Below are positions 4,152-33,320 of a stretch of DNA of 37,984 bases, in pieces. The translations under genes and the position numbers were made by a program. The stretch lies in contig CAZGRD010000003.1 in NCBI GenBank assembly GCA_964528065.1, positions 1 through 37,984 on the forward strand. The letters are read 5' to 3'. The notes beneath the pieces were generated by a model. That model saw nothing but the letters and a program-made list of their open reading frames with translations. It was not told where the DNA came from and searched no databases. This DNA comes from an uncultured Candidatus Saccharibacteria bacterium (lineage in GTDB: Bacteria > Patescibacteriota > Minisyncoccia > UBA6257 > GWB1-50-10). Position 1 is the stretch's first letter. Each line of letters starts with the position of its first letter.

Positions 4152-4721
4152 ATGTTGTCGTATAACGAACTAAAAATCGGAATGCTTTTCGTGAAAGACG
4201 GCGAGCCGTACGAGGTTTTGGAGTACGCGTTCGTAAGGATGCAGCAACGGAAACCCGTCGCTCAGCTCAAAATCAAAAACCTGATATCCGGCAAGGTTAT
4301 GCCTTACACCGCCCACCAGAATGAAAGTTTTGGGGAAGCGGAAATCGAGATAACGCCGGTCCAGTTCATTTACCACAACCGGGGTGAATATTGGTTTCAT
4401 GAAGTGGGAAAACCGAGCACCCGGTTTCTTTTGACGGACGAGGTTTTGAATGAGACCGGCAAGTATCTCAGGCCGGGAACGGAAGTAAAAGCATTTAAAT
4501 TCGGCGACAAAATAATAAATGTTGAGCCGCCGATTAAAGTTGAACTTAAAGTCGCCGAGGCGCCGCCTTCGATAAGAGGCAACACCGCCCAGGGCGGCAC
4601 CAAAACCGCGATACTGGAAACCGGCGCCAAAGTAAGCGTCCCGCTTTTTATAAACGCGGGAGATGTAATCCGCGTAAATACGAGAACGGGAGATTACGTA
4701 GAACGAGCGGAAAAAAATTAA
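4152..4721 (+). CDS. efp: Elongation factor P
   Basis: 189 aa. N-terminus is MLSYNELKIGMLF.KDGEPYEV. Three-domain EF-P length and layout, with GDVIRVNTRTGDYVERA at the C-terminus. Confidence 0.85.
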   Translation: MLSYNELKIGMLFVKDGEPYEVLEYAFVRMQQRKPVAQLKIKNLISGKVMPYTAHQNESFGEAEIEITPVQFIYHNRGEYWFHEVGKPSTRFLLTDEVLNETGKYLRPGTEVKAFKFGDKIINVEPPIKVELKVAEAPPSIRGNTAQGGTKTAILETGAKVSVPLFINAGDVIRVNTRTGDYVERAEKN

Positions 4722-6562
4722 GAACCTTCGGCTGACTTCTTGAGCGCGTCTTCAAGAGCACCTCGAAGACCTTCTATATCAACAGGAGTTTTGGTTTCGG
4801 GTTGGTGGGTTCTTTTCTTTTCTTCCAGCGGTTTTAGCTCGCTCAAGCTCACTCCTTTTTCAACCTCCTCGATGCCCGCCTCGCCGCCCCTTACAATCGA
4901 ACCGAAATGGGGACGGGCTTGTTGTTGTTCTCTCATCGGCGGCCTCCAATCGTTTCTTTCCCTGTCCTTGCGTCTTCTGTTTTTCCCAGCCGGCGGGGTG
5001 CTCTGTTCTTTTTTAATTTCCGTTTTCGAGTCAAACTCGATTCCCAGTCCGGATAAATCCGTCATATACTCTCCCCTGGTTTTCCCGCGGAAACTTGATT
5101 CCGTGGGCAAAGGCTTCAATTCTCCTTCTTCGATCTTCGCGTAACAATCGCTGCAGTAAACGGGCCGGCCGGGCGTCGGTTCGAACGGCACTTCCGCTTC
5201 TTTGCCGCAGATTGAACAGACGGTTTTGAATTTGTCCTGAGGCATCCCCGATTCGGTCCATTTGATAATTTCGTCTTCCACCACCTGCTGGGGTCTTCCG
5301 TACCGCTTGCGGGAATTTTTGATGATTTCTTCTTGGGTAACAAAAGAAGCGTTAACGTTGAAGGGCGGCAGAGTCAGCGCCGAAAACGGCCGGCAAGTCA
5401 CGCCGTTTACCATCAGCTTCAGGTAAACGTGGTAATTGGGGAGATTTACCAAATCCTGCTGGGTGAGTTCAGGCGTAAACTCGGTTTCCAAAAATTCGGC
5501 GTCAGCCGCTCCTATCCGGAAAATAATCATGGTACCCACGTTGCCGAAAACGGCGTCCCTCACTTTCGTGGAAACACTTGAGGAAAAATCGGTTACAAGC
5601 TGGCCTATATACTGGTGAGCGATGGTAAGATTCAGGCGGTATTTTCTCGCCTCCGAAAGAATCCCCGCAAAGCTGTCGGTCGCGAAATTCTGAAACTCGT
5701 CGACGTAAAGATAAAAATCCACCCGTTCCTCTTCCGTAATTCTGACTCGCTCCATTGCCGCAAGCTGGATTTTGGTGATAATCATCGCTCCCAGAAGAGC
5801 GGAGTTATCCTCGCCGATTCTTCCTTTGGAAACGTTAACGAGGAATATTTTTCCCTGGTTCATAATGTCGAAGATATCAATCGTGCTTTTCGATTGGCCG
5901 ACGATGTTTCTGATGAGAGCGGTGGAAAGAAACTGACCGACTTTGTTCTGAATTGGGGCAATGGCTTCGTTCCGGAATTGGTCCCGCCATTCCTCGAATT
6001 CGTGAATCCAAAAAGATTTGATCACCGGGTCTTTGACGTTCGCAACAACCTTCTGCCGATATTCTTTGTCAACCAAAATTCTCGTGACGCCCAAAAGGGT
6101 GCTGCCCGGCGTGTCTAAGAGCGCAAGAATCGCGTTGTTCAAAATGTATTCCATTCTGGCCGACCAAACGTTCGCCCAGATTTTCGTAAAAATCCCCATC
6201 AGACCCGAAGCGACTAAATGCTTGTACTTCGGGTCGGGCAACTCGAGAATATTGAATCCGACATGGTACTCGGTATCGGCCGGATTGAAATAAATGACGT
6301 CGTCGATTCTTTCTTTGGGAATCTTGGTGATAATTTCCTCGACGAGCTCGCCGTGAGGATCAACAACGCAAACACCTTCGCCGTTCGCGATGTCCTGAAT
6401 AATCATGTTGTGAAGGAGAGCGGATTTTCCGGTACCGGTTTTACCGATTACGTAAGTGTGCTGCCTTCGGTCTTTGCGCTTTACGCCAAAAAGCCGGTTG
6501 GAGTTCCGAAAATTCGTCCGGCCCAGATAAATAACGTCTTTCTCGTCCGTAAGAACCGCCAT
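4718..6562 (-). CDS. TraD/VirD4/TrwB-like P-loop ATPase (type IV coupling-protein-like) with a C-terminal zinc ribbon and disordered tail
   Basis: Walker A GKTGTGKS at about residue 41. Walker B-like FYLYVDEFQNF, then LTIAHQY. No N-terminal hydrophobic helices. C-terminal CSICGKEAEVPFEPTPGRPVYCSDCY, followed by an R/K/E-rich tail. Confidence 0.65.
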   Translation of the reverse strand: MAVLTDEKDVIYLGRTNFRNSNRLFGVKRKDRRQHTYVIGKTGTGKSALLHNMIIQDIANGEGVCVVDPHGELVEEIITKIPKERIDDVIYFNPADTEYHVGFNILELPDPKYKHLVASGLMGIFTKIWANVWSARMEYILNNAILALLDTPGSTLLGVTRILVDKEYRQKVVANVKDPVIKSFWIHEFEEWRDQFRNEAIAPIQNKVGQFLSTALIRNIVGQSKSTIDIFDIMNQGKIFLVNVSKGRIGEDNSALLGAMIITKIQLAAMERVRITEEERVDFYLYVDEFQNFATDSFAGILSEARKYRLNLTIAHQYIGQLVTDFSSSVSTKVRDAVFGNVGTMIIFRIGAADAEFLETEFTPELTQQDLVNLPNYHVYLKLMVNGVTCRPFSALTLPPFNVNASFVTQEEIIKNSRKRYGRPQQVVEDEIIKWTESGMPQDKFKTVCSICGKEAEVPFEPTPGRPVYCSDCYAKIEEGELKPLPTESSFRGKTRGEYMTDLSGLGIEFDSKTEIKKEQSTPPAGKNRRRKDRERNDWRPPMREQQQARPHFGSIVRGGEAGIEEVEKGVSLSELKPLEEKKRTHQPETKTPVDIEGLRGALEDALKKSAEGS

Positions 6563-6588
6563 CTTTACTGTATTTTACATTTTATTCT

Positions 6589-7629
6589 CTAATCTATCAA
6601 TCGGCCGACGTCCTGGATGGTTATCAAAACCATAAGGACCAAAAGAAGAACGAAGCCAAAAGCGTTGATGGCGGTTTGAACCTTCCGGGAAATCGGCTTC
6701 ATTCTTATCTTCTCGATGATAAGCAGGAGAAAACGACCGCCGTCCAAAGCCGGAAAGGGAATAAGGTTCAAGACGGCAAGGTTCACCGAAATGAAGGCCA
6801 TGAGTTCAAAAAGATACACGAAGCCCAAAGAGCCGGCCTGCGAGGCGAGCGCAACGATGCCGACCGGCCCGGCAACGGTTTCAAGCACTCCGGGCTGAAC
6901 TACGAGTTTAAGAAAAAAATCGACGAAGCTCACCGCTACCAGTTTCAGAGTGGAAACCGTTATCTGAAATCCCTTAACGAAACTTTTCCCAAAAGATTCG
7001 CCGGCAAATCCCACGTCAACCAAACTTACCCCTAGAGGGCCCTGGCCTTCCGGAGGATTTTCCCTGCCTTTTAAACTTACGCCGAAAACGTCTTCTCCTC
7101 TCATGATTTCGAGCTCTAAAGTTTCGGCGGACACGGCATTCACCAAACCGATGAATTCACCGCTCGGAACCGGGTCGTCGAGAACAACCTCGCCGCTTTT
7201 TGCCGTAAGAACAATATCGCCTTCTTTAAGACCCGCCTCGTAGGCAGGCGAATCCGGCAAAACTTGGGCGATAAAAAGGTGGCTGGGAGCGCCGGCAAAA
7301 AAAACGGCGCTAAAAACGAGCCATCCCAAAACAACGTTCATAAAAACTCCGGCGAGAATGATGACCGAACGGCGCCATACCGGCTCGGCTGAAAAACTTT
7401 TCGGCGTCCGCTCGTCGCTGTCCTCGCCGAAAATTTTTACAAAACCGCCGAAGGGCAGGAGATTCAAGCTGTAGAGCGTTTCCCCGAACTTTTTGGCGAA
7501 AAGCCGCGGAGGAAAACCGAGTCCGAATTCTTCAACCTTCACGCCGAAAATTTTGGCGGAGGCAAAATGGCCGAATTCGTGAACGAGAATAAGAACCGAC
7601 AGGCTGATTACAACGACGAGGATAATCAC
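6589..7629 (-). CDS. rseP: M50 site-2 protease (RseP/RIP metalloprotease)
   Basis: HEFGHF (HExxH) in the first TM helix. PDZ-like middle region. NLIPFPALDGG motif near the C-terminus. Confidence 0.85.
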   Translation of the reverse strand: MIILVVVISLSVLILVHEFGHFASAKIFGVKVEEFGLGFPPRLFAKKFGETLYSLNLLPFGGFVKIFGEDSDERTPKSFSAEPVWRRSVIILAGVFMNVVLGWLVFSAVFFAGAPSHLFIAQVLPDSPAYEAGLKEGDIVLTAKSGEVVLDDPVPSGEFIGLVNAVSAETLELEIMRGEDVFGVSLKGRENPPEGQGPLGVSLVDVGFAGESFGKSFVKGFQITVSTLKLVAVSFVDFFLKLVVQPGVLETVAGPVGIVALASQAGSLGFVYLFELMAFISVNLAVLNLIPFPALDGGRFLLLIIEKIRMKPISRKVQTAINAFGFVLLLVLMVLITIQDVGRLID

Positions 7630-13407: not shown

Positions 13408-13754
13408 ACGAATTCTATAACCGCCATTTTTGCCGCGTCGCTCTTCCTGACTTTCAGGTGCTTTAAAATCCTGGTATAGCCGCCTTTCCTTTCCTTGTAA
13501 CGCGGCGCGATGTCGTTGTAAAGCTTGTAAGCCAAAGGCTTCGGGAGATTTTTAAGAAGGAGACGGAGCCCGGCAAGGTTCTGGCTTTTGCCGTAGGTTA
13601 CCAGCCGGTCAACGTAAGTCTTTATTTCCTTTGCCCGCGCTTCGGTGGTTAAAATCCGTCCGTCCCGCACCAGATTACCGGCGAGCACTTTTAAAAAAGA
13701 GCGGCGTTCGCTCTTCTTGCGGCCGAATTTCCTCCCCTTTTTTAAATGTCTCAT
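13404..13754 (-). CDS. rplQ: 50S ribosomal protein L17
   Basis: MRHLKKGRKFGRKKSERRSFL..LTTEARAKE..YVDRLVT, typical of L17. Confidence 0.9.
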   Translation of the reverse strand: MRHLKKGRKFGRKKSERRSFLKVLAGNLVRDGRILTTEARAKEIKTYVDRLVTYGKSQNLAGLRLLLKNLPKPLAYKLYNDIAPRYKERKGGYTRILKHLKVRKSDAAKMAVIEFV

Positions 13755-13840
13755 GCCAGTGTTGTTAAAACTTACGAGCTCAATGCGAAGTAAATTTTAC
13801 CACAACATTGAGCACTCTGAGATTTATCGAAGAGTTACCT
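13755..13840 (-). repeat. 86-bp start-codon-abutting cassette, copy 1 (upstream of rplQ)
   Basis: 84/86 identical to 16208..16293 and about 67/86 identical to 22207..22292 (hand alignment, no gaps). Contains TGGTAAAAT (13802..13794, minus strand) and an interrupted inverted repeat at 13757..13810. Fills the rpoA-rplQ spacer. Confidence 0.85.
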
Positions 13841-13847
13841 TATTTGT

Positions 13848-16089: not shown

Positions 16090-16203
16090 TTAACCCTGTC
16101 TTTGCTTGTGTTTGGGAGTCTTGCAGATAACGTAAATGCGCCCGCGACGGCGGACAATCTTGCAATTATTGCAGATTTTTTTAACTGAAGCTCTTACTTT
16201 CAT
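16090..16203 (-). CDS. rpmJ: 50S ribosomal protein L36
   Basis: Below the ORF-track size cut-off. Hand translation gives [37 protein letters not shown], 37 aa, with a TAA stop at 16092..16090. Confidence 0.9.
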
Positions 16204-16207
16204 ACAT

Positions 16208-16293
16208 GCCAATGTTGTTAAAATTTACGAGCTCAATGCGAAGTAAATTTTACCACAACATTGAGCACTCTGAGATTTATCGAAGAGTTACCT
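16208..16293 (-). repeat. 86-bp cassette, copy 2 (upstream of rpmJ, offset 4 nt from the L36 ATG)
   Basis: Differs from copy 1 at 2 positions. Inverted repeat at 16210..16263. TGGTAAAAT at 16255..16247. The cassette's terminal ATG (16207..16205) is out of frame with the L36 ATG. Confidence 0.85.
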
Positions 16294-16384
16294 TTTCAAT
16301 AATGTAATCCTTCGACAAGCTCAGGATAAGGTTTGCTGACTAAATTTTCTGCGTCCTCCGGACTTGAAAATTCAGAGCAAGACC

Positions 16385-16600
16385 TTACATTCTTCTTACA
16401 ATCCGGCCTCGCCTGTCGTTCAATCCCGGCATTTCAATAATGACCCGGTCGCCGGGAATTACCCGAATGTGGTTGATTTTCATCTTACCGGCCAAGTGGG
16501 CTAAAACTTCGCCACCACCGGCAAGTTCCACCCGAAAGAGCAGGCCCGGCAATGCTTCCTCGACGATGCCTTCTATTTGTATGCCTTTGTCTCGTTTCAT
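16385..16600 (-). CDS. infA: Translation initiation factor IF-1
   Basis: 71 aa S1-like fold: IQIEGIVEEALPGLLFRVEL..GGEVLAHLAGKMK.NHIRVIPGDRV. Confidence 0.9.
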   Translation of the reverse strand: MKRDKGIQIEGIVEEALPGLLFRVELAGGGEVLAHLAGKMKINHIRVIPGDRVIIEMPGLNDRRGRIVRRM

Positions 16601-16644
16601 CAGGCGATGTCAGTTTGAAATCCTAACAAAATAGGCAAAATAAG

Positions 16645-18258
16645 TCAATTGAGGATTATTTTTACCTTGTCGGGGTCCACCGGCACCCTGTTCACCCAGA
16701 AGGGCCAGAGAGAAATGTTCGCCCGCTCCAAGCCGGAAAGGAAAAAGACGGTCTTCCTCAGTTCCTCTTCGTTCTGACCGGCGAATTCCTGCTTCAGTTC
16801 TTCAACGTTAAGGTCCGGCTCAAAAACCACCTCCCCTTCAACCGGAAAAACCACCGAAGTTTCGGCAAAATCAATATTTGCCTCGCCGTAATCTATCGAA
16901 AATTCTTTCACCCTCGTACCGGGGTCAACGGTTTTCTGAGCGTCGGAAACAACGGCGCCTTTTAACATTTCTTCCTCAAAAACAAGGTAGCGAAGCTCGG
17001 CCTCGGCAAAAATGCGGAAAGTTCCTTCGTCGCCGCCCGTCTCGATTTTTTCGGTCAAAACGTCGAACTCCCGGGCATTCGGAAAAACCTTGAATTTATC
17101 GGAGAGCAAAATAAGCACCTGAGCTTCGAGAACTCCTTCCAAGTCCGAAAACAATTTCGTTTTCCCTTTGCTTATGTCTTCTTCGGTCGGCACGGCTTCT
17201 TCCCCTACGAAACCGCCGCTCATCGCTTCAACGGAGTCGGCATAAAAACCTTCGTACCGCGGGTCGCCTTTAAATCCGGGAATCCGCCAGTATTTTTCCG
17301 AAGCGATGTTGTAATCTTCGCCCGCTTCGCCAGCCGTAACTTTTACGCTGATTTTGGATGGGACAATTTTCCCGTTCTCGATTTTCGCGCCGGGAATGGT
17401 CATCCGTTCGTCGAGGCGAAATATTTTCCCGCTCGGAGAAAGAAACCTAGTTGTCGCGACAAGCACCTGGGATTCGGAACTGTAAGCGTTGTAAACCGTA
17501 AGAATGCCTTTTGCTCTTCGTTCGACTTTTTCCCGGCCGGAAGCGGGAAAACTCAAACTCAAGTTTCCTTTCGCTTTGAGAAGTTCGGCGGGAAGAATCA
17601 TTTTCGTCCCCTGAGCGGCGGCAACCTGATGGTCGATTGTCGCCTCCACTTCGTAAGCGAAAGTGACCGGAACTTTTTTGAGAATCATCTCCACGGTCGC
17701 TTTGGGCAGAATGCGGTTTGCGGCAAACGCGCCGCCTGCGACGACCAAAACCACCAGAGCGAAAGAAAAGGCTCTTTTCAAAATCCGATGCCTTTTGTTG
17801 TTTCTGAAAGCTTTTTTGGCCTCAGCCGGCAAAACTATCTTTTTGAACTCGAGAAGCGTTTCTTCTTCCTCTTCTTCCTCTTCCGCAGATTCTTCTTCCG
17901 TAACTTCTTCTGCGGCCTCTTCTTCTTCGGCACTTACCTCCGGTATTCTTCTGAACGCCGGTTTCGGCAGAATGTCGGAAATGACTCTTTCCCTCCGCCT
18001 GAAAACAGGGTTAAAGGCCTTAATTTTAGCGAGAGCCGCAAGCTCCAAAGTCCTGTCGTCAACCGATTCAATATGGAGTTCCTTATCCGCCGTCAAACTT
18101 TCTCTTCTTAAAACATGAAAATTATTTACCGATGAGGCCAGGACCGAATCGCGGGGAATATTCAAAACGACGATATGGCTCTTGGCTTCAATCAGCCGGT
18201 GAACGGCAACGTCAAGGTCTTCGTTTTTATCGAGAAAGAATTTTTTTTCGGTTTTCAT
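16645..18258 (-). CDS. Hypothetical single-pass membrane protein (cytoplasmic N-domain, poly-Glu linker, large external beta-rich domain)
   Basis: 537-aa ORF. Acidic run is SAEEEEAAEEVTEEESAEEEEEEEE. The one hydrophobic helix is AFSFALVVLVVAGGAFAA. I recognise no catalytic motif. Confidence 0.55.
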   Translation of the reverse strand: MKTEKKFFLDKNEDLDVAVHRLIEAKSHIVVLNIPRDSVLASSVNNFHVLRRESLTADKELHIESVDDRTLELAALAKIKAFNPVFRRRERVISDILPKPAFRRIPEVSAEEEEAAEEVTEEESAEEEEEEEETLLEFKKIVLPAEAKKAFRNNKRHRILKRAFSFALVVLVVAGGAFAANRILPKATVEMILKKVPVTFAYEVEATIDHQVAAAQGTKMILPAELLKAKGNLSLSFPASGREKVERRAKGILTVYNAYSSESQVLVATTRFLSPSGKIFRLDERMTIPGAKIENGKIVPSKISVKVTAGEAGEDYNIASEKYWRIPGFKGDPRYEGFYADSVEAMSGGFVGEEAVPTEEDISKGKTKLFSDLEGVLEAQVLILLSDKFKVFPNAREFDVLTEKIETGGDEGTFRIFAEAELRYLVFEEEMLKGAVVSDAQKTVDPGTRVKEFSIDYGEANIDFAETSVVFPVEGEVVFEPDLNVEELKQEFAGQNEEELRKTVFFLSGLERANISLWPFWVNRVPVDPDKVKIILN

Positions 18259-19409: not shown

Positions 19410-19427
19410 TATGTTAGTAGTATAGCC

Positions 19428-19973
19428 CTAACGAACGAGCGCCACAATGCTCGAAGGTACGCTGTTTCTTTTTCCCTTATTGAGATAAAAATCAATCCGC
19501 CCCCCGAAATATTTTTCGGCCTGGGCAATCGTTCTGGCTGGCGGTTTGCCCGCGACGTTCGCCGACGGCGCGACGAGCGGTCCGGTCTTTTTCAAAAATC
19601 CGCGAAGCCGTCCGTTGCGGGGCAGACGAAAAGCAATCGCCCCCGTGCCGCGATGAATGTAAAAAAACTTCTTGCCCTTCACCGGTAAAATCACGCTTAC
19701 CGGTCCGGGTTTATCCCGAGTTTCGCCGAGGGACCAGAGCACTTTAAGAATTACGAGGTGCTCTTCGCTTATCTTCACGCCGAATTTTTTCAAATCGTCC
19801 AAAGACGATATCAAAACAATGAACGGTTTCCCCTTCTCCCGCTCTCTTACCCGATAAATTCTCTCGACCGCTGCCCTGGAAAGAACCGAGCCAACCAGAC
19901 CGTAAACGGTATCGGTCGGCATTACCCCGATGCCGCCCTTTTTCAATATCTTCACTATTTCTCTGGATTTCAT
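19428..19973 (-). CDS. tsaC: L-threonylcarbamoyladenylate synthase (TsaC/YrdC family)
   Basis: YrdC-domain signatures GGIGVMPTDTVYGLVG and PLVAPSANVAGKPPA. 181 aa. Confidence 0.85.
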   Translation of the reverse strand: MKSREIVKILKKGGIGVMPTDTVYGLVGSVLSRAAVERIYRVREREKGKPFIVLISSLDDLKKFGVKISEEHLVILKVLWSLGETRDKPGPVSVILPVKGKKFFYIHRGTGAIAFRLPRNGRLRGFLKKTGPLVAPSANVAGKPPARTIAQAEKYFGGRIDFYLNKGKRNSVPSSIVALVR

Positions 19974-20440: not shown

Positions 20441-20464
20441 GGTGGTATACTTAAGTATACCACC
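20441..20464. promoter_or_regulatory. 24-bp perfect palindrome (site B), second operator copy and/or bidirectional terminator hairpin
   Basis: GGTGGTATACTTAAGTATACCACC. Preceded by TTCTCTAAAAAC (20415..20426). Lies in the convergent spacer between the HTH gene and alaS. On the minus strand it is followed by CTTGGATTTGTTTGGTTTTTAG (U-rich). Confidence 0.6.
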
Positions 20465-20502: not shown

Positions 20503-22206
20503 CTATTCAACGGTTGCTCTGATTCTACGGACGCCGGCTGACGACGCTTCTTCTTTAATAATTTTGAATTTGCCGATTTCGTCGGTGTGGGTCACGTGAG
20601 GCCCGCCGCAAAATTCCTTGCTCCAGGCACTCTCGAGCGTTTTCCCGACATAGTAAACTTTCACCCGGTCCGGATACTTGCCTTTGAAAAAATGGAGAGC
20701 GCCGGTTTTTTCCGCCTCTTCCTTCGACATCTCCTTAAAACCAACCGGCAAGTCTTCCTTTATTTTCTCGTTAACCAGCTTCTCCGCCTTTTCGATTTCC
20801 TCTTTCGTCATTTTCCGCGGAAAAGTAAAGTCAAACCGTGTCCGCTCGATCGTAATGTCCGAACCGCGCTGGGCAACTTCCGGCCCCAGCACTTCCCGGA
20901 GCGCCTGATTCAATAAGTGAGTGGCGGTATGGAGCCGTGTCACTTTTTTCAGTTCTTCCCCGTCCCCGGCTTTTAGTTCACCGGTGTCCAAAACGAGGCC
21001 GTGGCCGCCGAACTTTTTTTCCTGACCGGCCCGCGATATTTCCTGATGCTTCTCGAATTCCTTGTCGAAATCTTCACGGCGAAGCTTCTTGGCCTTATCT
21101 CCGCCCAGCTCTTTTATAATCTCGTAAGGCAAACCGTAACTCGAAAAAATGTTGAAAGCCCTTTCAACGTCCAAATCTTCTGTTTTTTTGAGTTCCCTTA
21201 ACCCGATCTCCAGAGTTTTTTCGAAACGCTCCTTTTCGGCGTTAAATTCCTCAAGTACTACTTCACCGTTAAGTTCGGAATAAAAAGCTTCGTAGTTTTC
21301 GAAAACCTCATCAAAAACATGCTGAGGATCAATCGTGTTGCCGGCAAGATAGAAATGGGTAACGAGACGGCGAATCAGCCGGCGCAGAATGTACCCCGCT
21401 TCCTTGTTTGAAGGACGCACCCCGTCGGAGAGAAGAAAAGCGATGCCTCGGCTGTGGTCGGCTAAAATCCGCTTCGTTTTCTCGTTAAGTTTCTCCGGCA
21501 GAAATTTCATGAGTGGCTTGAACAAGTCCGTCTCAAAAATTGTCGGCACGTTTTGCGAGACCATCGCAAGCCGCTCCAGGCCCATCCCCGTATCCACGCC
21601 CGGCGTTTTCAGTTTTTCCAAACCGCGAGGCGAACTGTAGTATTCGTTGAAAACAATGTTCCAAATCTCCACGCCGCGAACGTAAACTTCCGTCGTCGGC
21701 CCGCAGGGTCCCTCACTGCCGGTCGGCCCCCAAAAGTTATCTTCCCGTCCGAATTTTCTCACGTCGGTAACGCCCAAAGCGCGCCAAACCTTTTCCGATT
21801 CCTTATCGGGCGGCACGTCATCGTCTCCTTTAAAAACGCTCACGTAATCTATTGGGAGCTTCATCTCCTTGGTGATGAATTCGTAGGCATATTCTATCGC
21901 TTCTTTTTTGAAATAGCCGCCAAAAGAAAAATTGCCGAGCATCTCGAAAAAAGTGAGGTGAGATTCGTCGCCAACTTCGTCGATGTCCGAAGTCCGGAAC
22001 GATTTCTGAATCGAGGCCGTGTTCTTACTTCCGAAATCCTTCACCGGGTCGAGTTCGCCGGTAAAGTGCCGTTTGAACTGCTGCATACCGGCGGTGGTCA
22101 AAAGTACCGAAGGGTCGTCGGGAATAAGCGAGGAAGAAAGCACGATTGCGTGTTCCTTTCTTTCAAAAAATTCCAGAAAAAGTTTTCTTATTTTTTCCGA
22201 ATTCAT
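20503..22206 (-). CDS. alaS: Alanine--tRNA ligase, compact form (catalytic plus editing core, no C-Ala domain)
   Basis: N-terminus is IRKLFLEFFERKEHAIV.SSSLIP.DPSVLLTTAGMQQFK. Also DTGMGLERLA, editing-site HTATHLLNQAL and FCGGPHV. The protein ends at GVRRIRATVE (567 aa). Confidence 0.88.
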   Translation of the reverse strand: MNSEKIRKLFLEFFERKEHAIVLSSSLIPDDPSVLLTTAGMQQFKRHFTGELDPVKDFGSKNTASIQKSFRTSDIDEVGDESHLTFFEMLGNFSFGGYFKKEAIEYAYEFITKEMKLPIDYVSVFKGDDDVPPDKESEKVWRALGVTDVRKFGREDNFWGPTGSEGPCGPTTEVYVRGVEIWNIVFNEYYSSPRGLEKLKTPGVDTGMGLERLAMVSQNVPTIFETDLFKPLMKFLPEKLNEKTKRILADHSRGIAFLLSDGVRPSNKEAGYILRRLIRRLVTHFYLAGNTIDPQHVFDEVFENYEAFYSELNGEVVLEEFNAEKERFEKTLEIGLRELKKTEDLDVERAFNIFSSYGLPYEIIKELGGDKAKKLRREDFDKEFEKHQEISRAGQEKKFGGHGLVLDTGELKAGDGEELKKVTRLHTATHLLNQALREVLGPEVAQRGSDITIERTRFDFTFPRKMTKEEIEKAEKLVNEKIKEDLPVGFKEMSKEEAEKTGALHFFKGKYPDRVKVYYVGKTLESAWSKEFCGGPHVTHTDEIGKFKIIKEEASSAGVRRIRATVE

Positions 22207-22292
22207 GCCAAATTTATTAAAATTTGCGAACCTTTGGTGAAGTAAATTTTACCATAAATTTGAGCACTCTGAGGCGCACCGAAGAGTTACCT
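22207..22292 (-). repeat. 86-bp cassette, copy 3 (upstream of alaS), the divergent copy
   Basis: Same length and same register relative to the ATG. TGGTAAAAT at 22254..22246. Inverted repeat at 22209..22262 with three compensatory pair changes relative to copies 1 and 2. The stop codon of the upstream gene (22287..22289) lies inside the cassette. Confidence 0.8.
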
Positions 22293-23639
22293 GTTATTCA
22301 CTATGAGAACCTTAAGCTCGGCGAGCATTATTTTGGCGCTCCTGATTTCGGAGACGGTGTCCGCTTCAAGAACGGTCTTCTCGGCCCGGTCGAAAAGTTC
22401 ATAAATTTCCGTCGCTACCTCCCGGGTTATGTTTTTAGCTCTTGCGACATTCACCAAATCGTCGAACTGAATCCTCAAAGAAAGGTTGTCTTCCTTAATT
22501 TCCTTCTTCAAGCGGGTTTGGCTCAAACCGTTTTGGGCGGCGGCTTGGGCCGCGGCCGCCTGGCCGAAAGCCGTTGCGAGCTGTCCTTCGCCCATAAGAT
22601 TGCCCGCCTGGGTGAGATAAAATTCCGCTCTTTCCAGGAGCTCGCCGACCGATTTCGAAGAAACATATTCGTCCGACGAAATTCTCGTCTTCAGTTCTTC
22701 TGTCGCTTTTTCGGCTTCGTAAATCAGTTTGGTAAGCGACTCTTCTTCAACCACGCCGCCGTTGCCGTTCTGGAAAGTGCTCTGACGAACGATATTTAGT
22801 TCGCTTTTCAGGTCGCCGTCGGATATTCTTTCTCTTATTTCGTCGAAAATACCGAGGTCGGCGGCGTCTTTTACGGGCAGGAAGTCGAGATGAGGCGTTA
22901 TTTCTTCCGGCTCCGCCTTGAATCGCCCCTCAAAAATAGAAGTCAAATCGGTTTCCAATTCCCTGATTTTATCCTTGATTCCGTCCGGTACTTTTCCTTC
23001 GATATAGTTCAAAACATAAACAACTCGAAGTTCTTTCAGGGGATTTTCCTTGAGAGCAAACAAAACATTTTCCACCCGGGTCTTGAATTCGTCGGGCGAA
23101 TCGAACTTGGTTACCGCCTCGGCAACCGCAGTCTCGAGTTCTGTCCTTGCGGCGGCAAGTTCCTCTTTGACCCCGGCAACGCCCTCGAGGTCGCTGAAAA
23201 CCTCTTCATGTTTGACAATCCGGTCCATAAGAGCGTCCAAGAGTCGGTCTACGTTTTCGTTCCCGCTCTTATCACTAAGAGAAGAAATTCTCTGCCGCAA
23301 CCGCTCGGCGTTCTCTTTGTAATTTTGAAGAGCGAGAATCAAGCCTTTTTCGTTTTCTTTTTCCTCCAGGGCTTTGATTTCGGCCGCGATTTCGTTCAAA
23401 ACTTCCGTCTCAAAAGACGCCTTTCTCTCGTTGCCGAACGAAAAAAACCGCCGGATTCCCCGCTGCCAATTCTTCAGAAAGTAAAGCGCGTCTCCCGGCA
23501 GAAGCTTCGGCTCTTTAAGCCCCAAATCCTCAAAAGTTATACCGCTCCCGCTTTCGTCTCCCTCGTGAGCAACCGCACTGAAAGGAACGGCGATAAGGAT
23601 AAGACCGAATATCAAAACCGAAAGAAAAAGTTTCTTCAT
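22287..23639 (-). CDS. Secreted all-helical hypothetical protein (possibly DUF5667-like)
   Basis: Signal peptide MKKLFLSVLIFGLILIAVPFSAVA. LPGDALYFLKNWQRGIRRFF segment. Long E/K/L-rich helical sequence. Sits 3 nt after the rpoD stop. Confidence 0.5.
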   Translation of the reverse strand: MKKLFLSVLIFGLILIAVPFSAVAHEGDESGSGITFEDLGLKEPKLLPGDALYFLKNWQRGIRRFFSFGNERKASFETEVLNEIAAEIKALEEKENEKGLILALQNYKENAERLRQRISSLSDKSGNENVDRLLDALMDRIVKHEEVFSDLEGVAGVKEELAAARTELETAVAEAVTKFDSPDEFKTRVENVLFALKENPLKELRVVYVLNYIEGKVPDGIKDKIRELETDLTSIFEGRFKAEPEEITPHLDFLPVKDAADLGIFDEIRERISDGDLKSELNIVRQSTFQNGNGGVVEEESLTKLIYEAEKATEELKTRISSDEYVSSKSVGELLERAEFYLTQAGNLMGEGQLATAFGQAAAAQAAAQNGLSQTRLKKEIKEDNLSLRIQFDDLVNVARAKNITREVATEIYELFDRAEKTVLEADTVSEIRSAKIMLAELKVLIVNNR

Positions 23640-26614: not shown

Positions 26615-27061
26615 CTATTCCACTATAATCTTACCGAAGTTTTGGGCATTCAGGTGGTTGTGGTAATTCCAGTTGCCGGCCTCGCTGAAAGTAAACGACC
26701 AGGAACCGCCGGCGGGAATGGCGCGGCAAGCGTCGAATATCCCCGCTTCCTCGGCCGTGCCGCATTTTTCGATATCCGAACCCGGATAAACTTTATGGGT
26801 GGGATGCATCGCCGAAGCCGGCCAAAAATCCATGGAGCTCCGGTTCTCGAAAACAACCGTGTCGCCGACCCGGACCGTAAGCGCGGCCGGTGAAAAACCG
26901 CTGTCGGTAAAAACAACTGTGTTTGTCTCGAGCGTCCCTTCGGAAACCGGAACACTGACCGGCGCCTCGTCAGCCCTGCCCATAACCAGAAAAACAACGA
27001 CAACGATTAAAATAACGGCGGCAACCGCAAGAATAATCATATTTTTCCCGTTCATATTCAT
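26615..27061 (-). CDS. Membrane-anchored cupredoxin-like protein
   Basis: N-terminal TM helix IILAVAAVILIVVVVFLV. Then TVVFTDSGFSPAALTVRVGDTVVFEN..H..H...WNYHNHL..FGKIIVE, resembling a plastocyanin-like fold. Confidence 0.5.
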   Translation of the reverse strand: MNMNGKNMIILAVAAVILIVVVVFLVMGRADEAPVSVPVSEGTLETNTVVFTDSGFSPAALTVRVGDTVVFENRSSMDFWPASAMHPTHKVYPGSDIEKCGTAEEAGIFDACRAIPAGGSWSFTFSEAGNWNYHNHLNAQNFGKIIVE

Positions 27062-27097
27062 AGAATAATTTTACGACCTTTTTATGATTTTTTGGGT

Positions 27098-33268: not shown

Positions 33269-33278
33269 CCCCCCAACC

Positions 33279-33305
33279 AAAAACCCTCATTTTATGAGGG
33301 TTTTT
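33279..33305 (-). terminator. groEL terminator (A-tract/hairpin/T-tract, potentially bidirectional)
   Basis: AAAAACCCTCAT-TTT-ATGAGGGTTTTT, starting 16 nt after the groEL stop. Confidence 0.75.
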
Positions 33306-33320
33306 GGAGTTTTAAGGGGT

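Follow-up and report, generated by a model that had tools for sequence, protein, structure and literature searches.

We describe an element of about 90 nt that occurs three times in a 37,984-nt stretch of DNA from an uncultured Candidatus Saccharibacteria bacterium (assembly GCA_964528065.1, contig CAZGRD010000003.1, positions 1 to 37,984; hereafter the window), and that carries a promoter motif in one arm of a conserved hairpin. All three copies are on the minus strand, as are the genes around them: copy 1 (13752-13841) lies between rpoA and rplQ, copy 2 (16205-16294) between infA and rpmJ, and copy 3 (22204-22293) between a DUF5667 gene and alaS. Comparison with copies from related genomes of Candidatus Jorgensenbacteria, within the Candidate Phyla Radiation (CPR), shows that the two arms of the hairpin are held complementary while their sequence drifts, and that the element has been copied to new sites. 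[quoted passage not shown]

Results

Architecture of the element

Read in the sense of the downstream gene, the element consists of GGTAAC, a small stem-loop that we call SL1 (ACTCT-TCG-N6-CTC-AGAGT), a longer hairpin, H1, and ATG. H1 is laid out as GC-T-(9 nt)-GG-TAAAATTTAC, a 14-nt loop starting with TTC, and G(T/C)AA(A/G)TTTTA-(9 nt)-GC. In copy 2 this becomes GC-T-CAATGTTGT-GG-TAAAATTTAC, the 14-nt loop, and GTAAATTTTA-ACAACATTG-GC-ATG; the outer arms of copy 3 are CAAATTTAT and ATAAATTTG. Copies 1 and 2 are 98% identical, and copy 3 is 76% identical to both. An earlier reading of the window (the original prediction) had described the arms and the rewritten loop of copy 3 relative to copy 2, and its description agrees with the sequence on re-reading.

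In copy 3, the TAA stop codon of the upstream DUF5667 gene sits within GGTAAC, immediately 5' of SL1 (22266..22287). The 5' arm of H1, GC-T-CAAATTTAT-GG-TAAAATTTAC, follows at 22242..22265, as judged from sequence, covariation and folding. Then come the 14-nt loop TTCACCAAAGGTTC (22228..22241; sequence and folding) and the 3' arm, GCAAATTTTA-ATAAATTTG-GC (22207..22227; sequence and covariation), which abuts the alaS start codon at 22204..22206. The corresponding features of copy 2 are SL1 at 16267..16288 and H1 at 16208..16266 (5' arm 16243-16266, loop 16229-16242, 3' arm 16208-16228). Those of copy 1 are SL1 at 13814..13835 and H1 at 13755..13813 (5' arm 13790-13813, loop 13776-13789, 3' arm 13755-13775), the 3' arm of which abuts the rplQ start codon (13752..13754). 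All of these features are on the minus strand. The stem of SL1 is identical in all aligned copies except the remodelled rpmJ copies of two related loci (L021 and L022), and variation is confined to the loop, as had first been noted for the hexamer between ACTCT and AGAGT. The copy found before rplO has no SL1.

Copy 2 ends in GGCATGtATGaaag, where the ATG of the element (16205-16207) precedes that of rpmJ (16201-16203) by 4 nt and is in a different reading frame (ATGtATG, 16201..16207, minus strand). This extra ATG opens an 8-codon open reading frame (ORF), MYESKSFS (stop), that is common to all eight strain contigs. The rpmJ copy of the sister genome JAZDPW reads GGCATGAAGG, with a single ATG and without the extra 4 nt.

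Covariation and folding of the hairpin

The original prediction drew attention to three positions in copy 3 that had changed on both arms. Pairing is indeed restored at all three, and compensatory change extends far beyond them, in keeping with the selection on pairing that had been proposed. The evidence comes from gathering and aligning more copies, the check that had been suggested. Among eight full-length copies, both partners differ in five stem pairs, with 98% of cells paired. Among eight distinct arm sets, which include those of L012 and L022, both partners differ in 10 of the 21 pairs, with pairing in 97% of cells. In L012, 8 of the 21 pairs have been rewritten, so that most of both arms is changed, and the helix is kept. 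None of 500 shuffles of the eight arm sets reached any of the five measures used, and sliding the register so that the partner was shifted by 1-3 columns lowered pairing to 24-46%. The unpaired T and the 2-nt bulge of the 5' arm (GG, or TG in L012) persist in all eight arm sets, and the inner arms, TAAAATTTAC and GTAAATTTTA, are constant in most copies. Copy 3 has one uncompensated A.C in the inner stem (GCAAA against TTTAC); in copy 1 there is a U.G and also an A.C that is polymorphic among strains. Together the H1 arms, with their 21 pairs, bound the element as terminal inverted repeats.

As RNA, the 64-nt hairpins have folding z-scores of -3.1 to -6.5, and as DNA of -3.9 to -8.6. The predicted H1 helix is interrupted, has 21-23 bp and reaches the AUG. 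The 3' arm had been thought to end 2 nt before the ATG; instead, the helix can be extended by GUGC/GCAU and so take in the GC together with the A and U of AUG. The ATG of the rplO copy is set 2 nt farther from the arm than that of other copies.

The loop of H1 holds a partial copy of the end of the 3' arm (CATTGAGC in copies 1 and 2, TCACATTGGGC in L011, GCGTTGGGC in L021). It can pair with the 5' arm at its start (CATTGAGC with GCTCAATG) in the copy 1/2, L011 and L021 types (window 16229-16266; L011 5429-5492). In L011, this fold is the predicted minimum-energy structure, is near-isoenergetic with H1, and frees the 3' arm and the AUG. The pairing is absent from the copy 3 type, which rules it out as a universal switch.

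A promoter motif in the 5' arm

The -10-like box that had been pointed out in the 5' arm turns out to be a full extended -10 motif, TGGTAAAAT, a perfect match of the TGnTAAAAT type. It is exact in all three window copies (13794-13802 in copy 1, 16247-16255 in copy 2 and 22246..22254 in copy 3, all minus strand), and TGnTAnnnT is kept in every copy except that of L016. In L012, with most of the arm rewritten, the box is retained as TGCTAAACT with a one-base shift. The TGn of the box is provided by the 2-nt bulge of the 5' arm, which explains why that bulge is never paired away. The mirrored box on the opposite strand retains its TG only in the copy 1/2 type, indicating that the constraint is asymmetric and directed toward the gene.

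A C followed by a purine lies 7-8 nt downstream of the box in all types. This step matches the Y-1/R+1 (pyrimidine/purine) start element that has been described across bacteria (PMC12641261). From these motifs we infer promoter activity, with predicted transcription starts on the minus strand at the G at 13786 in copy 1, the G at 16239 in copy 2 and the A at 22238 in copy 3. A natural half-element, GTGCTCAAATTTATGGTAAAATTT with GGCA, stands 12 nt (counted from the retained GGCA) before the serine hydroxymethyltransferase (SHMT) gene, glyA, and has neither SL1 nor the 3' arm. Ordinary TGnTAAAAT boxes are also found upstream of other genes in the clade, and one relative has TGTTAAAAT in front of a different gene. 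Elsewhere the organism relies on canonical sigma-70 signals. Within the window, a canonical sigma-70 promoter (TTGACT-17-TGtTAGGAT, 16620-16648, minus strand) lies 20 nt before infA, which looks like a transcription unit of its own, followed by a hairpin, H0, that is described below. The upstream regions of the genes called in the window have no obvious Shine-Dalgarno sequence when judged by eye, and thus a leader without one is not odd for the element.

Several genes of the window carry a box resembling TAAAAT or TATACT at only 6-9 nt from the start codon (27062-27080, 6563-6590 and 19410-19430 minus; for example, cgTAAAATtattctATG at 27061). Such close boxes suggest leaderless or near-leaderless mRNAs.

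Copies in related genomes and gain of new sites

We scanned species-representative genomes and metagenomes with a pattern for SL1 only, leaving the hairpin unconstrained. Copies that lack SL1, such as the rplO copy, are invisible to these scans, and the copy numbers given here are those seen in the loci covered. Identities of downstream genes were taken from Pfam. The scans gave 1-3 hits per genome and found more copies in related Jorgensenbacteria: before rpsH (L011), proS (L012), the alaS orthologue (L013/L021), an HTH_25 gene (L015/L020) and a peroxiredoxin (AhpC) gene (L016). Contigs fetched through homologues of L17 and S8 yielded three additional copies, two of them at the rpmJ orthologues (L021 and L022). 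The third, between rpsE and rplO in L028, probably belongs to the window's species, for which it is a fourth copy, and its H1 has the arms of copy 2. The L17 protein of the window falls in the 100%-identity cluster named after Candidatus Jorgensenbacteria GWA1_49_17, to which we assign the window; it is also encoded on many contigs from Rifle groundwater and on MFKG01000017 (GCA_001779475.1). Multiple copies and insertion polymorphism are thus both present among related genomes, with a low copy number of 1-4 seen per genome. No transposase was seen in the loci fetched around the copies. In viral contigs, the H1 pattern had no hits, and six hits of the SL1 pattern look like chance matches within apparent phage coding regions.

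The element has been copied to new sites, as comparison with empty sites shows. The gap between rpoA and rplQ is 7 nt in JAZDPW, whose L17 is 91% identical, and 1 nt in a 76% relative, with no element in either. In the 76% relative (L025), alaS overlaps its upstream gene, again without an element, and in two relatives rpsE and rplO overlap by 20 nt. Conversely, JAZDPW has a copy at the rpsH site, where a covariance model derived from copies of the element had no hit in L027 or L028, both probably of the window's species. Three gains can be dated in this way (rplQ, alaS and rplO), and all are 0-2 nt before the native ATG. The filled and empty sites at these three genes reveal no target-site duplication. 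An ATGTA repeat flanks the copy 2 unit in the window and was not seen in the relative. At 11753-11851 of L027, which encodes the same S8 protein as L028 and is probably from the same species, a scaffold gap of Ns falls exactly at the site of the L028 rpsE-rplO hairpin, consistent with a repeat breaking the assembly.

The element is under strong sequence constraint. The alaS copy is identical to that of JAZDPW at 89 of 90 positions; the flanking genes are 81-89% identical, and their third codon positions 60-82%. Similarly, the arms of copy 2 match those of its L021 orthologue exactly, and 4 of the 14 loop bases differ.

An inverted pair and related hairpins

Copy 2 is one half of a larger unit. 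A diverged inverted copy, H0 plus SL0, lies head-to-head with it at 16303..16389 on the plus strand and was identified by a covariance-model hit of 30.6 bits and by its fold. Read in the gene sense, H0 forms a long hairpin beginning at the stop codon of infA, and a tandem-G.A hairpin, ATCCTGAGC..GAAGGAT, comes next. The full unit, H0-SL0/SL1-H1, is about 190 nt long, is an inverted pair of halves of about 88 nt, and folds as three adjacent helices that together span the interval between the stop codon of infA and the start of rpmJ. L015/L020 (L015 417-506, minus strand) and L022 (2198-2284, minus strand) contain this inverted copy as well. In L015/L020, the unit lies between ftsK and the HTH_25 gene and its H0 is homologous to that of the window, indicating that the whole unit moved between unrelated sites.

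The inverted copy keeps a TGACTAAAT box on its own strand, which would fire antisense into infA. SL1 and SL0 are one hairpin type, YCTTCG-loop-CTCAGR, the complement of which is CTGAG..CGAAG with tandem G.A, and this type is found in both orientations (window 16267-16288 and 16308-16330; L012 4146-4170). Three tandem copies of the type, with covarying outer stems and without the promoter hairpin, occur at 639-760 of L014, and SL1 and SL0 look like members of a wider repeat family. In the sister genome, the loops of SL1 and H1 have gained small, unrelated GC-rich hairpins nested within them (L021 7370-7565; L022 2305-2350 and 2375-2425). One such gain, located between TAAAATT and ACTTC, comprises three hairpins in 49 nt and differs between two strains of one species. 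A hammerhead-like sequence in the L021 expansion, CUGAUGAG...CGAA, was set aside on inspection, as it lacks the required order of core motifs.

Other hairpins and small insertions

A different element of about 135 nt, with CCCGTTAGAA..TTCTAACGGG as its bounds, ends exactly at start codons in L025 (9085-9219, rpoA) and L023 (3070-3212, murA). It has no Rfam match and may represent a second mobile module with hairpin ends, or else a leader RNA not yet described. L023, an 88% relative, also has AT-rich inverted-repeat inserts of about 110-130 nt at rplQ-rplM (650-765), rplM-rpsI (1100-1225), murA-mreB (4500-4625) and mreB-holB (5630-5760). Between rpsM and rpsK in L025 (7893-8030), the sequence runs from TAA through TCCCTCACCCTTCAA...TTGAAGGGTGAGGG to ATG. 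It thus seems a general feature of the clade that hairpin-bounded fillers lie between the genes of operons. A small lineage-specific insertion of another kind, an 85-aa GIY-YIG ORF, lies at 5111-5368 of L021 between genes that are 11 nt apart in the window.

Two further palindromes were seen in the window. One, GGTGGTATACTTAAGTATACCACC (20441-20464), is a near-perfect hairpin between convergent genes. The other, CCAAAAACCCTCAT-AAA-ATGAGGGTTTTTGG (33277-33307), is also near-perfect and resembles a classical bidirectional terminator; terminators with a U-tract thus exist in this genome.

Discussion

We favour the view that the element is a mobile promoter-plus-leader module whose arms pair in read-through RNA. 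The 5' arm would be a sigma-70 extended -10 promoter, TGnTAAAAT, with transcription starting at the purine after ACTTC, the first base of the loop, and the 3' arm would be an AU-rich leader without a Shine-Dalgarno sequence that runs into the start codon. An RNA begun at the module's own promoter would contain only the 3' arm, and its leader would be open. A read-through RNA from the upstream gene would contain both arms and could form the helix of 21-23 bp that reaches the AUG. The original prediction reasoned that the full hairpin is confined to transcripts begun upstream, and this follows from the sequence. We infer an RNA-level role for the helix: it might be an RNase III-type double-strand signal for processing or stability, or it might mask the start region, and in both cases the downstream gene would be made independent of transcripts from upstream. 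The module is copied alone, with SL1, or as the inverted pair, to positions 0-2 nt before the starts of genes in tight operons.

We are rather doubtful of a more specific version, in which the module is self-insulating: a promoter in one arm and its RNA complement in the other would let the cell tell transcripts apart by their origin. Read-through RNA would fold into stacked helices that bring the upstream stop codon beside the downstream AUG, and the junction would be silenced or cut, while RNA from the module's own promoter would be translated. Self-insulation could allow insertion 0-2 nt before starts in essential ribosomal-protein operons of a Shine-Dalgarno-poor CPR bacterium without disruption. 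The unrelated hairpin-bounded inserts at start codons in L023 and L025 might be further cases of the same rule.

Several observations weigh against an RNA-level promoter module. Single-sided changes in the helix number about six G.U and two to three A.C in the gene sense, which is not decisive for a gene-sense RNA, and the antisense strand folds as well as or better than the gene sense. A survey of 43 co-directional intergenic regions of the clade found no bias in GU pairs (223/2016 in sense, 236/2025 in antisense), and the sense strand was the more stable in 19 of the 43. Masking of the AUG is not universal, as the AUG is outside the helix in the rplO and glyA copies. The predicted promoter has no match to a -35 motif, and L016 has a poor -10 yet keeps the hairpin, SL1 and GGCATG. 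L022 combines the 49-nt loop insertion with three arm changes that give wobble pairs at best. Lastly, the independent arm types number only about five, a small sample, despite which the signal for complementarity is unambiguous. The pairing may matter in RNA or in DNA, and the element behaves like mobile DNA, with SL0 and SL1 in opposite orientations and hairpins inserted in the loops of L021 and L022.

A serious competing view, possible if not what we expect, is that the pairing acts in DNA. The arms might be terminal inverted repeats or a single-strand hairpin used for copying, as in MITE, foldback or REPIN-like elements (REPIN refers to paired repetitive extragenic palindromic sequences, discussed below), or they might be kept complementary by template switching from one arm of the quasi-palindrome to the other during replication, with the promoter as a passenger or as a payload through which insertions survive. 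The lineage-specific gains at four sites, the copying of the whole unit between non-homologous sites, and the status of copy 2 as half of an inverted pair would all be expected of such an element. SL0 and SL1, the same hairpin in opposite orientations in one transcript, are a poorer fit to a strand-specific RNA motif. As DNA, on whichever strand, the hairpin folds no less well than as RNA, and the lack of strand bias in the G.U and A.C counts, the small hairpins in the loops of L021 and L022, and the assembly gap exactly at the rplO copy in L027 point the same way. Template switching that homogenises inverted-repeat arms near promoters is documented for yeast promoter repeats (PMC13100816). 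However, template switching would erase the T bulge and the 2-nt bulge, and both persist. The three datable insertions have no target-site duplication, no transposase was seen near the copies, and the copy number is low. The orthologous alaS copy, 99% identical including its loop, points to a function at the level of the host beyond that of a copying signal.

The near invariance of all 90 nt between species at alaS, loops included, could also reflect a structured cis-regulatory leader or a plus-strand antisense RNA, either of which would bind a trans factor that controls translation-related genes, TGGTAAAAT being incidental. We consider this quite unlikely. Ribosomal proteins or aminoacyl-tRNA synthetases are indeed the products of several downstream genes, folding z-scores are better for the plus strand, which has tandem G.A motifs in SL1, and the loop of L011 can pair with the 5' arm in a near-isoenergetic alternative. 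Yet HTH_25 and AhpC genes are also found downstream, the half-element before the SHMT gene retains the promoter arm only, loops differ completely between copies in one genome, and copy 3, L011 and L012 have no conserved plus-strand promoter. Rfam gave no hits in the window and eight related loci at the gathering threshold, and a permissive scan around copy 2 (E<=10) gave only chance-level hits, with E values of 1.5-9.4. A dyad-symmetric operator for a dimeric repressor, which the original prediction had allowed as an alternative to an RNA hairpin, is very improbable. The inverted repeat overlaps the -10, and the constancy of the inner arms in most copies would fit an operator, but a protein site needs a constant sequence, and both the outer and the inner arms change with compensation, as in the rewritten pairs of L012. 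The spacing between half-sites would be about 24 bp, and L022 tolerates its 49-nt insertion between them. The least credible of these alternatives is that an intrinsic terminator of the upstream gene has been fused to a promoter. A stable hairpin does lie downstream of the upstream genes, and H0 starts right at the infA stop codon. Nevertheless, H1 is AT-rich and is followed by GGCAUG and coding sequence, not by a U-tract, it is absent from the listing of a terminator scan, and classical terminators with a hairpin and a T-tract exist elsewhere in the genome, such as that at 33277-33307.

Almost nothing is known of promoters, leaders and operon remodelling in CPR bacteria (Patescibacteria), as these organisms cannot be grown alone. 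The module offers a concrete promoter motif, with start sites predicted at single-base resolution, and it indicates that a small copying element re-wires even the most conserved ribosomal-protein operons of reduced genomes. If the pairing acts in RNA, the module would offer a compact means of insulating a promoter from whichever transcription unit it is inserted into. If it acts in DNA, the module would be a new small mobile element, none of this kind having been described for the phylum as far as the literature shows.

Integron attC sites do not fit, as neither GTTRRRY nor RYYYAAC was found at the arm ends on either strand by inspection. The element is not an inverton, as its promoter lies within an arm and the arms are only 14 nt apart. 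Intercistronic RNase III hairpins, such as the R-sites of phage T7 early mRNA and that of rpsO-pnp, each consist of an interrupted helix of some 20 bp that directly precedes the start codon of the next cistron in a polycistronic transcript. H1 is a similar interrupted helix between cistrons, for which cleavage is hypothetical; unlike the present element, the T7 and rpsO-pnp hairpins are not repeated mobile modules and do not carry a promoter for the downstream gene.

The promoter itself agrees with known sigma-70 extended -10 promoters, which have TGnTAnnnT, need no -35, and start at a pyrimidine/purine step 7-8 nt downstream (PMC12641261). What differs here is that the box is one arm of a conserved hairpin, the other arm of which is its own leader. 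Repetitive extragenic palindromic (REP) sequences, and the bacterial interspersed mosaic elements (BIMEs) and REPINs built from them, are likewise extragenic palindromes, occur as inverted pairs with longer hairpins, and undergo compensatory change that conserves pairing; REPs have also been suggested to contribute to mRNA stability. In contrast to the present element, REPs are GC-rich sequences of 20-40 bp, are high-copy and usually 3' of genes, and have a GTAG/CGTC tag and a tie to RAYT (REP-associated tyrosine) transposases (PMC3733652). With AT-rich arms that hold a promoter, no end tag, and 1-3 scan hits per genome, the present element is not of the REP/REPIN class.

Correia elements of Neisseria (Correia repeat enclosed elements, CREE; also called NEMIS, Neisseria miniature insertion sequences) are the most similar. 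Like the present element, they are small intergenic palindromic repeats that lie mostly 5' of genes and differ in presence among strains, they carry parts of sigma-70 promoters in their inverted-repeat ends, and they make hairpins in co-transcribed mRNA, which for CREE are substrates of RNase III (PMC2649163). Some CREE end at the A of an ATG (PMC2649163). CREE are 69-157 bp long, have 26-bp terminal repeats, duplicate a TA (or CA) target, contain a site for integration host factor (IHF), and number about 120-250 per genome. Here, by contrast, the hairpin is about 60 nt, no target duplication was seen, few copies were seen per genome, the complete extended -10 lies within one arm, and insertions are 0-2 nt before the ATG in ribosomal-protein operons. 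We do not file the element as a member of the Correia family, which is nonetheless the closest known system.

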